From assembly GCF_009931435.1 (NCBI RefSeq), contig NZ_CP043414.1: DNA of 64,000 nucleotides; one strand, 5' to 3'. The notes beneath the pieces are model-generated. The model had not been told where the DNA came from. It was given only the letters and a program-made list of their open reading frames with translations, and did not search any database. Of this stretch, positions 31,139 to 43,611 are shown piece after piece; within the stretch, counting starts at the first letter, position 1, and the number at the start of each line of letters is the position of its first letter. The translations under genes and the position numbers were made by a program. The DNA comes from Escherichia coli (GTDB taxonomy: Bacteria; Pseudomonadota; Gammaproteobacteria; Enterobacterales; Enterobacteriaceae).

Positions 31139-33802
31139 TTACGCCAGACGCGGGTTAACTTTTTCTGCATCGATGTTGAATTTGGCGATTGCGTCAGCAA
31201 CCACTTTCTTATCGATTTCGCCACGTTTAGCCAGTTCGCCCAGCGCCGCAACCACGACATAAGAAGCATCAACTTCGAAGTGGTGACGCAGGTTCTCACG
31301 GCTGTCGGAACGACCGAAGCCATCAGTACCCAGTACGCGGTAGTCGTCAGCCGGTACGTAAGTACGGACCTGCTCAGCGAACAGTTTCATATAGTCGGTA
31401 GATGCCACTGCCGGAGCGTCGTTCATCACCTGAGCGATATACGGAACGCGTGGAGTTTCCAGCGGGTGCAGCATATTCCAGCGTTCACAATCCTGACCAT
31501 CACGCGCCAGTTCGGTGAAGGAGGTCACGCTATATACGTCAGAACCTACGCCATAATCTTTCGCCAGGATCTCTGCCGCTTCACGGACGTGACGCAGGAT
31601 AGAACCGGAGCCCAGCAGCTGAACTTTACCTTTGCTACCTTCAATGGTTTCGAGTTTGTAGATACCTTTACGGATACCTTCCTCAGCACCTTCCGGCATT
31701 GCCGGCATGTGGTAGTTTTCGTTCAGCGTAGTGATGTAGTAGTAAACGTTCTCTTGTTTTTCACCGTACATACGCTCCAGACCGTCATGCATGATGACAG
31801 CAACTTCGTAAGCGTAAGCCGGGTCGTAAGAAATACAGTTCGGGATAGTCAGCGACTGAATGTGGCTGTGACCATCTTCGTGCTGCAGACCTTCGCCGTT
31901 CAGGGTGGTACGACCGGAAGTACCGCCGATCAGGAAGCCACGTGCCTGCTGGTCGCCAGCAGCCCAGCACAAATCGCCGATACGCTGGAAGCCGAACATC
32001 GAGTAATAGATGTAGAACGGAATCATCGGCAGATTGTTGGTGCTGTAAGAAGTCGCCGCTGCCAGCCAGGAACAACCTGCGCCCAGCTCGTTGATCCCTT
32101 CTTGCAGAATCTGACCTTTCTCGTCTTCTTTATAGTAAGCAACCTGCTCGCGGTCCTGCGGGGTGTACTGCTGACCGTTCGGGCTGTAAATACCAATCTG
32201 ACGGAACAGACCTTCCATACCGAAAGTACGCGCTTCGTCGGCGATGATCGGCACCAGACGATCTTTGATCGACTTGTTCTTCAGCATCACGTTCAGGGCA
32301 CGAACGAAAGCGATAGTGGTAGAGATCTCTTTGCTCTGCTCTTCCAGCAGCGCGCCGAAGTCTTGCAAGCTCGGCAGCTCCAGCTTCTCGGTGAAGTTCG
32401 GCTGGCGGCTTGGCAGATAACCGTGCAATTTCTGACGCTGAGCGTGCAGATAGGTATGCTCTTCAGAACCTTCCGGGAAGGTGATGTACGGCAGTTTTTC
32501 GATATCAGCATCAGACACCGGCACATTGAAACGGTCGCGGATATGACGCACGCCGTCCATGTTCATTTTCTTAACCTGGTGCGCGATGTTTTTACCTTCA
32601 GCTGCGTCGCCCATGCCGTAACCTTTAATGGTATGAGCAAGGATTACTGTCGCTTTGCCTTTGGTTTCCTGCGCTTTCTTGAATGCAGCGTAGATTTTCT
32701 TCGGATCGTGACCACCACGGTTCAGCGCCCAGATCTGCTCGTCAGTCCAGTCTGCAACCAGAGCTGCGGTTTCCGGATATTTACCGAAGAAGTGTTCACG
32801 AACATACGCACCATCTTTCGATTTGAAGGTCTGGTAATCGCCGTCAACGGTTTCGTTCATCAGCTGGATCAGTTTACCGCTGGTATCTTTACGCAGCAGT
32901 TCGTCCCAACGGCTACCCCACATCACTTTGATCACGTTCCAGCCAGCACCTTCGAAGATGCCTTCCAGTTCGTTGATGATCTTGCCGTTACCGGTGACCG
33001 GGCCGTCAAGACGCTGCAGGTTACAGTTGATAACGAAGACCAGGTTATCCAGTTTTTCACGGGTAGCGATGGTGATCGCACCTTTGGATTCCGGTTCGTC
33101 CATCTCGCCGTCGCCGAGGAAGGCGTAAACGGTCTGTTTAGAAGTATCTTTCAGGCCACGGTGTTCCAGATATTTCAGGAATTTAGCCTGGTAAATAGCA
33201 CCAATCGGACCCAGACCCATAGATACGGTCGGGAACTGCCAGAATTCCGGCATCAGTTTCGGGTGCGGATAGGAAGAGAGGCCATTGCCGTGAACTTCCT
33301 GACGGAAGTTATCCAGCTGCTCTTGAGTCAGACGACCTTCCAGGAAAGCACGTGCGTAAATGCCCGGGGAGATGTGGCCCTGGAAGTAAACCAGGTCGCC
33401 GCCATCCTGCTCGTTGCGTGCACGGAAGAAGTGGTTAAAGCACACATCATAAATGGTTGCGGACGACTGGAAGGACGCCATGTGGCCGCCCAGTTCGAGG
33501 TCTTTTTTCGACGCACGCAGAACCGTCATGATGGCGTTCCAGCGGATAGCTGAACGAATACGGCGTTCCAGTTCCAGATTACCCGGATACTCCGGTTGTT
33601 CTTCAACGGGGATGGTGTTGATGTAGTTGCTGATACCGGTGCCTGCGGCTACGTTGACACCGCCTTTGCGGGCTTCAGCAAGCAGTTGGTCGATCAGATA
33701 CTGAGCACGCTCAACACCTTCTTCACGGATGACCGATTCGATCGCCTGGAGCCAGTCGCGAGTTTCGATCGGATCCACGTCATTTGGGAAACGTTCTGAC
33801 AT
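31139..33802 (-). CDS. aceE: Pyruvate dehydrogenase E1 component
   Basis: 887 aa, [29 protein letters not shown]. Confidence 0.97.
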
Positions 33803-33962
33803 GGGTTATTCCTTATCTATCTAATAACGTTGAGTTTTCTGGAACCTGTCCCATTGAACTCTCGCCGGAAAGCTCAATAAGACAGGTTCTACGTTTAGTT
33901 GCCGCGCTTTTATATGCGCTTGATTTACAACATCTTCTGGATAATTTTTACCAGAAAAATCA

Positions 33963-34727
33963 CTAATTCTTTCGTTGTTCCAGACGACGCAGAGAACGCT
34001 CACGGCGGCTCTCTTCACGGCTTCTGTCGAGCAAAATTTCTTCGATAAAGGCCAGATGGCGATGCGATGCTTCGCGCGCTTCTTCCGGCTTACCGGCCAT
34101 AATCGCTTCGAATATGCGAGTGCGGTGACTACTCACCAGCGGCAGCATCTCGCGACGCGAATAGAGCAATTCGAAGTTCTGACGGACATTCTGAGCCAAC
34201 ATCGGCTCCATACACCTTAGCAGATGAAGCAGAACTACATTGTGGGCTGCTTCGGTGACGGCAATCTGATACTGGAGGACGGCGTTTGATTCCGCGTCCA
34301 GATCGCCAGACTGCTGCGCCAGCTCTATGGCGTGGTGGAGTTCACGGATGCGTTCCTTGTCTTCATCGGTACTACGCAGCGCGGCGTAATAGGCGGCGAT
34401 ACCTTCCAGGGCGTGTCGTGTTTCGAGCAAGTCATACTGTGATTCAGGATGGTCGGAGAGCAGCTCCACCAGCGGATCGCTGAAACTTTGCCAGAGGCTG
34501 CTCTGAACAAAAGTGCCGCCACCCTGGCGACGAAGCAACAAGCCCTTTGCTTCGAGACGTTGAATCGCCTCACGCAAGGAGGGACGGGAGACGTCGAACT
34601 GTTTCGCCAGTTCGCGTTCCGGTGGGAGTTTTTCGCCCGGGCGGAGTGTGCCTTCGAGGATCAAAAACTCCAGTTGCTGCTCAATCACATCGGAGAGTTT
34701 TGGTTGGCGGATTTTGCTGTAGGCCAT
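33963..34727 (-). CDS. pdhR: Pyruvate dehydrogenase complex repressor (GntR family)
   Basis: 254 aa from [26 protein letters not shown]; GntR-type HTH; track ORF begins at an upstream TTG. Confidence 0.95.
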
Positions 34728-34758
34728 GAGTTCCTGTCTTAAGCCACTTGCCGAAGTC

Positions 34759-34775
34759 AATTGGTCTTACCAATT
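34759..34775 (-). promoter_or_regulatory. PdhR operator in pdhR promoter/leader
   Basis: Perfect palindrome AATTGGTCTTACCAATT matching PdhR box ATTGGT-N3-ACCAAT, about 30 bp upstream of pdhR ATG. Confidence 0.8.
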
Positions 34776-35179
34776 TCATGTCTGTGACGCTAAAGTAACA
34801 AAGTATTCACCTCATGTCCATACAGGTTTTGATTGAAATCATGAAACTGTGCACATTTTAACAAGTTGACATATATAACGTTTCAAAGTTGTAACTATGC
34901 ACAAATGTAGACTTTACGTAGGAAAGGGATTTTTTAACGATTATTAAACTATAAAAATCCGAATTGAACCGATTCACTTACCAATTTATCGATTTTTAAT
35001 TCAAAAATAATGAATTTATATTCATTTTGTATGTTGAGGGGATTTGAGGCTGACCTTTACAAACGGTTCCTTTTTAAGCAACTCATCTTCAACCATGCAT
35101 AAAGCGGGTGCATTCGCTGCCGCATACCATTATTCTTTATCTGACGGAAGTCCTTTTGTAACAATTCAAACGTCTTTGA

Positions 35180-35197
35180 TGTAAACAAATTAATACA
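35180..35197 (+). promoter_or_regulatory. Candidate TyrR box upstream of aroP
   Basis: TGTAAA-CAAATT-AATACA resembles TyrR consensus TGTAAA-N6-TTTACA (2 mismatches), about 70 bp upstream of aroP ATG. Confidence 0.35.
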
Positions 35198-35267
35198 AAA
35201 AACGGAATTGCAAACTTACACACGCATCACTGCGTAGATCAAAAAAACAATCACCGCACGAGGTTTC

Positions 35268-36641
35268 ATGATGGAAGGTCAACAGCACGGCGAGCAGCTA
35301 AAGCGCGGCCTTAAAAACCGCCATATTCAGCTTATCGCGCTGGGTGGCGCGATAGGGACCGGGCTATTTCTGGGTAGCGCCTCCGTAATACAGTCCGCAG
35401 GGCCAGGGATTATCCTGGGTTACGCCATTGCTGGTTTTATCGCCTTTCTGATCATGCGTCAGCTAGGTGAAATGGTGGTCGAAGAACCTGTCGCAGGCTC
35501 CTTTAGCCACTTTGCTTATAAATACTGGGGTAGCTTTGCCGGTTTCGCTTCTGGCTGGAACTACTGGGTACTGTACGTTTTAGTTGCCATGGCAGAGCTG
35601 ACTGCCGTGGGTAAATACATTCAGTTCTGGTATCCGGAAATCCCCACCTGGGTTTCTGCCGCCGTGTTCTTTGTGGTGATCAACGCCATCAACCTGACAA
35701 ACGTAAAAGTGTTTGGCGAGATGGAGTTCTGGTTTGCCATTATCAAAGTTATCGCAGTGGTGGCGATGATCATCTTCGGCGGCTGGCTACTGTTCAGTGG
35801 CAACGGCGGCCCGCAGGCGACCGTTAGCAACCTGTGGGATCAAGGTGGTTTCCTGCCGCACGGCTTTACCGGACTGGTGATGATGATGGCGATTATCATG
35901 TTCTCTTTCGGCGGTCTGGAACTGGTGGGGATCACCGCAGCAGAAGCTGATAATCCGGAGCAAAGTATCCCGAAAGCAACTAACCAGGTTATCTACCGCA
36001 TCCTGATTTTCTATATTGGTTCGTTAGCCGTTCTGCTCTCGCTGATGCCATGGACCCGCGTTACTGCTGATACCAGTCCGTTTGTACTGATCTTCCACGA
36101 ATTGGGCGATACCTTTGTGGCTAATGCGCTGAACATCGTGGTACTGACTGCTGCGCTCTCCGTGTACAACAGCTGCGTATATTGCAACAGCCGTATGCTG
36201 TTTGGTCTGGCACAACAGGGCAACGCGCCAAAAGCGCTGGCGTCTGTCGACAAACGCGGTGTACCGGTTAACACTATTCTGGTGTCTGCGCTGGTTACGG
36301 CATTGTGCGTGCTGATTAACTACCTTGCACCGGAATCCGCATTCGGACTGTTAATGGCGCTGGTGGTATCTGCACTGGTCATCAACTGGGCGATGATTAG
36401 CCTGGCGCATATGAAATTCCGTCGCGCCAAGCAGGAACAAGGCGTGGTAACTCGCTTCCCTGCTCTGCTTTATCCGCTGGGTAACTGGATCTGCCTGCTG
36501 TTTATGGCGGCGGTACTGGTGATTATGCTGATGACCCCAGGAATGGCGATTTCGGTATACCTGATCCCGGTATGGCTGATCGTGTTAGGTATCGGCTATC
36601 TGTTTAAAGAGAAAACCGCCAAAGCCGTAAAAGCGCATTAA
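35268..36641 (+). CDS. aroP: Aromatic amino acid:H+ symporter (APC family)
   Basis: 457 aa, MMEGQQHGEQLKRGLKNRHIQLIALGGAIGTGLF; multi-TM permease. Confidence 0.95.
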   Translation: MMEGQQHGEQLKRGLKNRHIQLIALGGAIGTGLFLGSASVIQSAGPGIILGYAIAGFIAFLIMRQLGEMVVEEPVAGSFSHFAYKYWGSFAGFASGWNYWVLYVLVAMAELTAVGKYIQFWYPEIPTWVSAAVFFVVINAINLTNVKVFGEMEFWFAIIKVIAVVAMIIFGGWLLFSGNGGPQATVSNLWDQGGFLPHGFTGLVMMMAIIMFSFGGLELVGITAAEADNPEQSIPKATNQVIYRILIFYIGSLAVLLSLMPWTRVTADTSPFVLIFHELGDTFVANALNIVVLTAALSVYNSCVYCNSRMLFGLAQQGNAPKALASVDKRGVPVNTILVSALVTALCVLINYLAPESAFGLLMALVVSALVINWAMISLAHMKFRRAKQEQGVVTRFPALLYPLGNWICLLFMAAVLVIMLMTPGMAISVYLIPVWLIVLGIGYLFKEKTAKAVKAH

Positions 36642-43387: not shown

Positions 43388-43611
43388 GTGCGGATTCCTG
43401 GGGTTAATGGCTATAAGGGTAAGAGCGCAACTCCAGTGACGCTATCATACGCACTAATCAATGCGGCGCAAGACTGCGAAATTGTCTTTTTTTACGCTAC
43501 AATCCCATAAATTTACCTGGTAAATAGTGAGCGAACGTTTCATCAATTTCGCTTTCGTGCGCTCATTTTTAACGTTTTGATAATCATGATGAATTCCCGG
43601 GAATATAAATT

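Follow-up and report, generated by a model that had tools for sequence, protein, structure and literature searches.

The 540-bp stretch between pdhR and aroP is very probably a compound, bidirectional transcription-control region that acts at the level of the DNA, and the region is already known from promoter genetics, ChIP, and published start-site maps. In the leftward direction, a single strong promoter (start at 34785) would drive pdhR-aceEF-lpd, and PdhR bound to a palindrome at +11..+27 would shut this promoter off until pyruvate releases the protein. ArcA would repress the same promoter through one box lying over the -10 hexamer and spacer and through a second box at -167..-146, FNR would act on it at -50.5, and CRP and Cra would affect it as well, as the literature has it. 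In the rightward direction, aroP would be transcribed from two promoters, P1 (35143) and P2 (35172); TyrR together with an aromatic amino acid would bind boxes within 35180..35220 and bring RNA polymerase to an overlapping promoter, P3 (-10 at 35129..35124), with the result that P1 would be blocked. The putative elements between the two promoter sets are a Cra-like palindrome and an ArgR-type pair, and the AT-rich middle appears in the literature under the label of a "promoter island" bound by H-NS.

The gap and its genomic setting

The gap occupies positions 34728..35267 of the window, by which we mean the whole 64,000-nucleotide stretch that was analyzed, and separates pdhR (33963..34727, minus strand) from aroP (35268..36641, plus strand); aceE, aceF, and lpdA lie beyond pdhR on the left. 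A first-pass annotation of this DNA had singled it out as the largest intergenic gap in the window, as markedly AT-rich, and as the divergent control region of the two genes, and all three descriptions hold. Gaps were ranked after CDS annotations from a nearly identical E. coli genome, which differs from the window by indels, had been mapped onto the window by blast; the pdhR-aroP gap ranks first at 540 bp, followed by gaps of 354 bp (acnB/yacH) and 273 bp, and window bases 1-1361, which fall outside the mapped genome stretch, are occupied by two ORFs. The GC content of the gap is the lowest of the large gaps, at 0.348 versus 0.519 for the window, with a pooled intergenic value of 0.45 that is a rough figure (comparator-genome coordinates were used unshifted), and in 200-bp windows it falls to a minimum of 0.295-0.305 around 34800-35099. 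As to its role as a divergent control region, the PdhR operator on one side and the TyrR box on the other are both experimentally documented.

Of 5,426 complete E. coli genomes, 5,423 match the 540-bp gap, in one case with 100% identity, and 4,363 of the 5,423 cover at least 80% of the query. The K-12 equivalent of the window is located at ~92.8-156.8 kb in reverse orientation; near the gap, the K-12 position is given by 156819 minus the window position x, a conversion confirmed by exact matches of published K-12 sequences. Neither the K-12 RefSeq genome nor the best-matching strain has an annotated feature within the gap.

Promoters and operators of pdhR and aroP

The gap as a whole and the features on its pdhR side are as follows.

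34728..35267, unstranded: whole pdhR-aroP intergenic control region, 540 bp, GC 0.348.
34759..34775, unstranded: PdhR operator AATTGGTCTTACCAATT, an exact match, at +11..+27 of the pdhR transcript.
34785 (K-12 122034), minus strand: pdhR transcription start, on which 5'RACE, Cappable-seq, and SMRT-Cappable-seq agree.
34792..34820, minus strand: pdhR core promoter, with -10 TACTTT (34797..34792) and -35 TGGACA (34820..34815), hexamers deduced from the mapped start.
34792..34812, minus strand: ArcA box "pdhR2" AGGTGAATACTTTGTTACTTT, an exact match, from -27 to -7, over the -10 hexamer and spacer (Park 2013, Table S4).
34829..34842, unstranded: FNR site TTGATTGAAATCAT, centered at -50.5 from the pdhR start, 1 mismatch to TTGAT-N4-ATCAA.
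34851..34917, unstranded: conserved upstream blocks GCACATTTTAACAA, ACGTTTCA, TGTAAC, GCACAAATG, and TTTAC, 90-100% conserved, with 2-5 variable bases between them.
34931..34951, minus strand: ArcA box "pdhR1" TAGTTTAATAATCGTTAAAAA, an exact match, from -167 to -146 (Park 2013, Tables S1-S4 and S6).

A perfect PdhR palindrome had been noted in the pdhR leader on the first pass, and its identity as the PdhR operator is confirmed by genomic SELEX, in which the PdhR box at K-12 122052 was the top target (score 14/14). The 17-bp palindrome AATTGGTnnnACCAATT, the consensus given in the genomic SELEX paper, is present at 34759..34775, just downstream of the start at 34785; AATTGGTCTTACCAATT is the sole exact match in the 64-kb window, where 0.17 chance matches would be expected at ≤2 mismatches. 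Across 78 related species the two arms of the operator are invariant and its 3-bp spacer is 93-94% identical. The start itself lies 58 nt ahead of the ATG by 5'RACE and has a Cappable-seq score of 1290, and SMRT-Cappable-seq recovered the same position together with a minor start at K-12 122024. A published promoter sequence ending at the start-site A aligns to 34785..34823 on the minus strand with one mismatch, and across species the identity to the window is 90% or higher at every position from 34791 to 34812 and 100% over 34793..34812 (all-rows table).

The first-pass annotation had proposed promoter and terminator prediction on both strands as a check on this region. A consensus scan for intrinsic terminators found none in the gap, and a simple sigma-70 consensus scan of the gap likewise recovered 0 promoters (1.9 in shuffles); promoter prediction thus missed the known weak promoters, that of pdhR because both of its hexamers are weak. 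That the real promoters are poor matches to the consensus fits with their dependence on activators.

Both published ArcA boxes, TAGTTTAATAATCGTTAAAAA and AGGTGAATACTTTGTTACTTT, occur without mismatch in the window. The FNR site was placed at -50.5 by ChIP-seq, with a peak at K-12 121987, and the center of TTGATtgaaATCAt coincides with this published position; the FNR pattern alone shows no excess over chance in the 64 kb, and the support for the site comes from its position, the literature, and its conservation, the site being almost invariant between genera. The region has also been reported as activated by CRP, repressed by Cra, recovered by SELEX with PlaR, and enriched in FNR ChIP-chip. 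Several of the blocks at 34851..34917 are ArcA-like GTTA/GTAA repeats on the pdhR strand, and going by this resemblance in sequence they might be additional ArcA repeats.

The aroP side of the gap contains the following features.

35057..35116, unstranded: conserved aroP-upstream blocks TTACAAA..CTTTTTA and CATAAAGCGGGTGCATTC, which include the usp insertion point at ~35092..35098.
35124..35129, minus strand: -10 hexamer TGGTAT of the divergent, TyrR-activated promoter P3 (mutagenesis table of PMC7142922), conserved across genera.
35131..35136, plus strand: probable -10 hexamer TATTCT of aroP P1, at least 90% conserved.
35143 (K-12 121676), plus strand: aroP P1 start, from SMRT-Cappable-seq.
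35172 (K-12 121647), plus strand: aroP P2 start, from SMRT-Cappable-seq.
35180..35197, unstranded: strong TyrR box TGTAAACAAATTAATACA, 2 mismatches to TGTAAA-N6-TTTACA.
35203..35220, unstranded: weak TyrR box CGGAATTGCAAACTTACA, read from the sequence, with arms GGAA and TACA 91-100% conserved.
35258..35270, plus strand: aroP ribosome-binding site ACGAGG and start codon, from sequence and conservation.

The TyrR consensus is TGTAAA-N6-TTTACA, of which the symmetric G and C (G-N14-C) are retained in TyrR boxes. Both TGTAAACAAATTAATACA and CGGAATTGCAAACTTACA keep G2 and C17, and the cores of their arms are conserved; in the strong box, conservation is 94-100% in the cores GTAAA and TACA, 24% at the first T, and 78-91% at two positions of the right arm. 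The bare TyrR pattern is not above chance, with 17 matches at ≤3 mismatches in the window versus 24 expected. The sequence at 35180..35197, previously described as TyrR-box-like, can be accepted as a real box because its core arms are conserved in 78 species and TyrR binding has been published, for E. coli K-12 and by gel shift in S. bongori (PMC7142922). Judging from the deletion series in the same paper, the weak box is the one closer to aroP. Although they are upstream of the aroP CDS, the two boxes are downstream of the P1 and P2 starts, and hence in leader DNA, and they lie upstream of P3.

The work of Pittard, as related in PMC7142922 (2020), established P1 as the major promoter, with P2 downstream of it and the divergent P3 overlapping it; apart from the promoters that serve pdhR and aroP, P3 is the sole promoter known in the gap. 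TyrR bound to the strong and the weak box brings RNA polymerase to a "non-productive" P3 and so represses P1, and it is in strains without the usp island that P3 is described as nonproductive (PMC7142922). The base-exact positions of P1, P2, and P3 given here derive from later start-site maps. Within the equivalent of 35057..35116, a RamA site, GCATTCGCGGCCACA, has been reported from ChIP-seq in Salmonella.

Conservation, spacing, and candidate sites in mid-gap

A protein-guided scan of one genome per species yielded 80 loci with PdhR, and aroP is divergently upstream of pdhR in 79 of them; in 78 of these the gap measures 524-653 bp, Serratia included. These 78 gaps were aligned to the window, giving 79 rows with the window included. 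As a baseline, the four-fold degenerate sites in pdhR average 0.48 identity, and only 3.4% of them reach ≥97%; the mean identity of the pdhR-proximal segment 34786..34976 is 0.75, with 45% of positions at ≥97%. Most of the conserved DNA in the gap is accounted for, with conserved blocks falling on the PdhR operator, the pdhR promoter with its overlapping ArcA box, the FNR and distal ArcA sites, P1/P3, the TyrR arms, and the aroP ribosome-binding site; the blocks at 34851..34917 and 35057..35116 stand apart from these assignments. The variable positions are grouped in clusters of 2-5 between the blocks. As read from the alignment, such clustered change is the signature of protein-binding sites and not of codons or paired RNA.

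Spacing is conserved along with sequence. From the PdhR box to 34934 the alignment is essentially free of indels in ~76-78 of the 79 rows. The segment 34965..35070 has a length of 105 or 106 bp in 69 of the 79, even though its core (34977..35056) is only 42% identical, and 72 of the 79 have 301-304 bp between the FNR site and the P1 -10 hexamer. The aroP leader of the same gaps is far less uniform, with lengths of 60 to 187 bp.

The variable core and its immediate surroundings contain the following features.

34965..34976, unstranded: Cra-like palindrome TGAACCGATTCA, ~186 bp upstream of the pdhR start, an exact match to TGAAnCGnTTCA.
34988..35005, unstranded: ArgR-type box 1 ATCGATTTTTAATTCAAA, 2 mismatches to wnTGAATwwwwATTCAnw.
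35009..35026, unstranded: ArgR-type box 2 AATGAATTTATATTCATT, 0 mismatches, 3 bp from box 1.
35045 (K-12 121774), minus strand: very weak transcription start with a Cappable-seq score of 1.55, among the lowest of the scores listed, in poorly conserved sequence.

The ARG-box consensus is wnTGAATwwwwATTCAnw, and the 18-bp boxes are paired with 3 bp between them. The two mid-gap boxes, with 2 and 0 mismatches, have exactly this separation. The best ArgR-type box pair is found at an identical offset in 66 of 77 species, with a mean of 7.8 mismatches versus 12.8 in shuffles, and 86% of species do better than their own shuffles (P ≤ 0.05). Neutral DNA had been one candidate description of 34977..35056 (0.42 identity), and it was rejected, as this segment contains the ArgR-type box pair. 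An ArgR ChIP-exo study reportedly mentions aroP five times. ArgR binding at the predicted box pair is probably already known, and we infer from the motif that ArgR may use this central pair.

The published Cra motif is gcTGAAtCGaTTCAgc, and TGAACCGATTCA is the exact core of it. Ten of the 12 positions of the palindrome are 93-100% identical across species and the remaining two are at 77% and 82%; the Cra pattern alone shows no excess over chance in the window. A Cra-type copy with 1 mismatch is found within pdhR at 34561..34572. According to the Cra ChIP-exo paper, Cra is located "downstream of two promoters," which fits this copy better than the perfect palindrome at -186, and the copy within pdhR may be the one that is bound; use of the predicted central palindrome by Cra is suggested by its match to the motif.

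Tight packing of sites accounts for part of the fixed spacing across the gap, and the rigidity that remains may be due to helical phasing of the pdhR half relative to the aroP half. A stronger proposal, which we hold as possible yet doubtful and which the spacing in the alignment brings to mind, is that a single phased nucleoprotein complex physically couples the two divergent promoter sets, with the ArcA repeats, Cra, an ArgR hexamer, a TyrR hexamer, and H-NS as possible components. If this coupling were true, the pyruvate and redox signals that act on pdhR and the amino-acid signals that act on aroP would affect each other; the literature examined contained no demonstration of spacing-based coupling at the pdhR-aroP locus.

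Alternative readings and comparison with known systems

Panyukov and Ozoline listed K-12 121694_343 (window 34783..35125) among 78 promoter islands, regions that in their account have predicted start sites at very high density, bind RNA polymerase and H-NS, give little transcript, and are linked to foreign DNA; H-NS was found at this one in one data set. The AT-rich middle might on this basis be an H-NS-silenced promoter island of foreign origin, where polymerase binds unproductively, and not a set of specific operators, a reading that gains from the local GC content (down to 0.30) and from the H-NS-repressed usp island that B2 strains carry at this place. Against it, the gap, its length, and its layout are common to 78 species of many genera, including Serratia, and because this layout is shared the gap is ancestral and not recently acquired. 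Much of the span of the catalogued island is accounted for by the ArcA, FNR, Cra-like, and ArgR-like sites, which are conserved in position, and promoter-like sites in the consensus scan are fewer than in shuffles (0 versus 1.9), with the qualification that this simple scan differs in method from that of Ozoline. We therefore regard a foreign-derived promoter island as an unlikely description of the middle of the gap and retain the reading of a DNA-level control region built from specific operators.

The usp island itself is present in ~1,060 of the 5,423 genomes, those that cover less than 80% of the query, where a ~4-kb usp/imu bacteriocin-like toxin island (PAIusp) splits the gap, for example in CFT073 and other urinary isolates; transcription of usp comes from P3 and is subject to repression by H-NS (PMC7142922). 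Alignment of the B2-strain flanks to the window puts the island junction at ~35092..35098, which is ~20-25 nt beyond the presumed start of P3 in the direction of its transcription. The aroP-side flank of island-bearing strains is ~75% identical to the window and the pdhR side beyond 190 bp is nearer to Salmonella than to the window, which suggests that the island came together with its surroundings. We rejected the idea that B2 strains replaced 34918..35097 by the island, since the alignment shows that the flank was retained but has diverged. The window is the ancestral, island-free, common state.

The first-pass annotation had also left room for a small unannotated RNA or peptide in the gap, for which the Rfam, structure, ORF, and terminator searches gave no support. 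An independent small RNA gene in the AT-rich middle, on either strand, would be in keeping with the unusual length and partly high conservation of the gap, with the weak minus-strand start at 35045, and with the leftward firing of P3 into the gap; in addition, a Ribo-RET pile-up on the pdhR strand ends at the pdhR start, and transcription from upstream would be needed for it. The weak start falls in the least conserved stretch, however, and SMRT-Cappable-seq shows no separate transcript, aroP and pdhR alone being seen. On the pdhR strand, which was the scope of the Cappable-seq and Ribo-RET data, the only Cappable-seq starts in the gap among those listed are 121774 and the pdhR start. The start-site maps thus come essentially to what had been expected if no independent transcript existed, namely, pdhR, aroP, and one near-threshold start; these maps are from cultures that lacked the aromatic amino acids P3 requires.

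Structure and family searches point the same way. The only Rfam match at E ≤ 1 in a scan of 33700..35500 is tp2, in the aceE-pdhR gap, so that none falls in the pdhR-aroP gap. The RNAalifold structure conservation index (49 diverse species, sliding windows, both strands) is 0-0.1 in most windows, with values of 0.35-0.40 in the sliding window over the PdhR palindrome and 0.13-0.22 in the adjacent one. Folding energies do not stand out from those of shuffles for either leader (pdhR or aroP) or for the putative P3 read-through RNA, with z-scores of only -0.6 to -0.8. With no intrinsic terminator either, the marks of a small RNA gene (its own start, a 3' end or terminator, and a structure or family) were not found together here, and we consider such a gene very unlikely.

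A small protein encoded in the gap is extremely unlikely: several ORFs of 13-46 codons exist (none reaches 60 aa, as had been claimed, and the longest has 46 aa), and three on the minus strand at 34790..34904 are open in 80-90% of species, but these three are GTG- or TTG-initiated, mutually overlapping in different frames, and located ahead of the pdhR start, ORFs in the variable center are retained in ≤10% of species, the sole Ribo-RET call in the gap (pdhR strand; table coordinates shifted by +2805) is a 3-codon "LLL*" on the -10 hexamer, variable positions show no 3-base period as judged by eye, and across 78 species no frame is conserved beyond the DNA. Preservation of the 34790..34904 ORFs is uninformative because the underlying DNA is nearly invariant for other reasons, namely, its ArcA and FNR sites.

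For genome annotation, the DNA-level control region that we favor adds little, being a bacterial control region of the textbook type. It does serve as a worked example of how a long, AT-rich, and seemingly "empty" gap can be largely explained by operators through conservation and binding data, and it offers leads for E. coli regulation in the conserved Cra-like palindrome, the ArgR-type pair, and the fixed pdhR-aroP spacing.

The closest known system is the aroP-pdhR region of K-12 (b0112/b0113; 121552..122091), which shares the locus and the 540-bp length and is 95.2% identical without gaps. The window has the FNR site of K-12 and, with sequences identical to those published, its PdhR box and two ArcA boxes, and the two regions differ by strain-level substitutions only: ATGAGG replaces the ATAAGG of K-12 in the spacer between the pdhR -35 and -10 hexamers, and the second ArgR-type box, perfect in the window, has one mismatch in K-12. 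In uropathogenic B2 E. coli and in Salmonella bongori, PAIusp is inserted at the same chromosomal site, which is empty here. The P1/P3 system of aroP described by Pittard is present and conserved: the -10 hexamer of P3, TGGTAT, overlaps P1, two TyrR boxes lie next to each other toward aroP, and no difference in kind was seen; the distance from P1 to P2 is 29 nt in later start-site maps compared to 21 bp in the text of PMC7142922. More broadly, other compound divergent regions bound by ArcA and FNR, such as sdhC/gltA and acs/nrfA, likewise bring several global regulators together in one intergenic region, an arrangement for which the literature uses the term "hard coupling" of two divergent operons. 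Compared to sdhC/gltA and acs/nrfA, the pdhR and aroP promoter sets stand ~360 bp apart, and a site that acts on both would be hypothetical.

Conserved spacing and predicted sites between pdhR and aroP

Across the 78 Enterobacteriaceae species with aligned pdhR-aroP gaps, the distances between conserved blocks in window 34759..35136 are almost free of insertions and deletions, including through stretches where the sequence itself is poorly conserved. The aroP leader (35181..35257) ranges in length from 60 to 187 bp, with the leaders of Klebsiella and Raoultella carrying inserts of about 110 bp. Three predicted regulator-type elements are located as follows:

34965..34976, perfect palindrome of Cra type, 186 bp ahead of the pdhR start
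34561..34572, Cra-type copy with one mismatch, inside pdhR and 404 bp from the perfect palindrome
34988..35026, mid-gap pair of ArgR-type boxes separated by 3 bp, predicted from sequence

The upstream Cra-type palindrome is retained across nearly all genera examined, and the position of the putative ArgR-type pair is conserved in 66 of 77 species.

A Ribo-RET pile-up (score 20) was found on the pdhR strand at window ~34786 (-), equivalent to K-12 122033, with its end 1 base ahead of the pdhR transcription start; a peak at the pdhR start codon was not among the peaks listed. The source RNA of these reads would have to begin further upstream.

The usp/imu island and a possible separate insertion at the aroP-pdhR locus

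Of 5,423 complete genomes of E. coli, about 1,060 carry the usp/imu island (PAIusp) at the position corresponding to window ~35092..35098. The annotation labels usp "TssD" and describes the imu genes as bacteriocin immunity genes. Two comparison loci from other genomes bear the island:

L005 7182..12223, island-bearing locus
L006 7456..10930, island-bearing locus

The flanks kept beside the island have diverged far more than the rest of the genome, and in CFT073 an IS3-family transposase is present in addition to the island. In a single species, Superficieibacter sp. (L061 1522..3501), the aroP-pdhR gap measures 1978 bp and has a GC content of 0.45. These values suggest that the locus received a separate insertion in that species.

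Small genes and length variation elsewhere in the window

Two small features were recovered outside the gap:

33805..33918 (+), tp2 small RNA, full-length Rfam match (103 bits, E 1e-19)
43543..43587 (-), yacM, a 14-codon small protein gene

The tp2 match falls between aceE and pdhR and runs antisense to the pdhR-aceE transcript; its annotation is absent from both RefSeq records examined. Between speD and yacL (~22250..22300), the window lacks about 1.4 kb of DNA that is present in the comparator genome NZ_CP074749.1. This extra segment contains a 1092-bp gene whose product is a tetratricopeptide-repeat protein. The yacM sequence is 100% identical to the copy annotated between guaC and coaE in a related genome.
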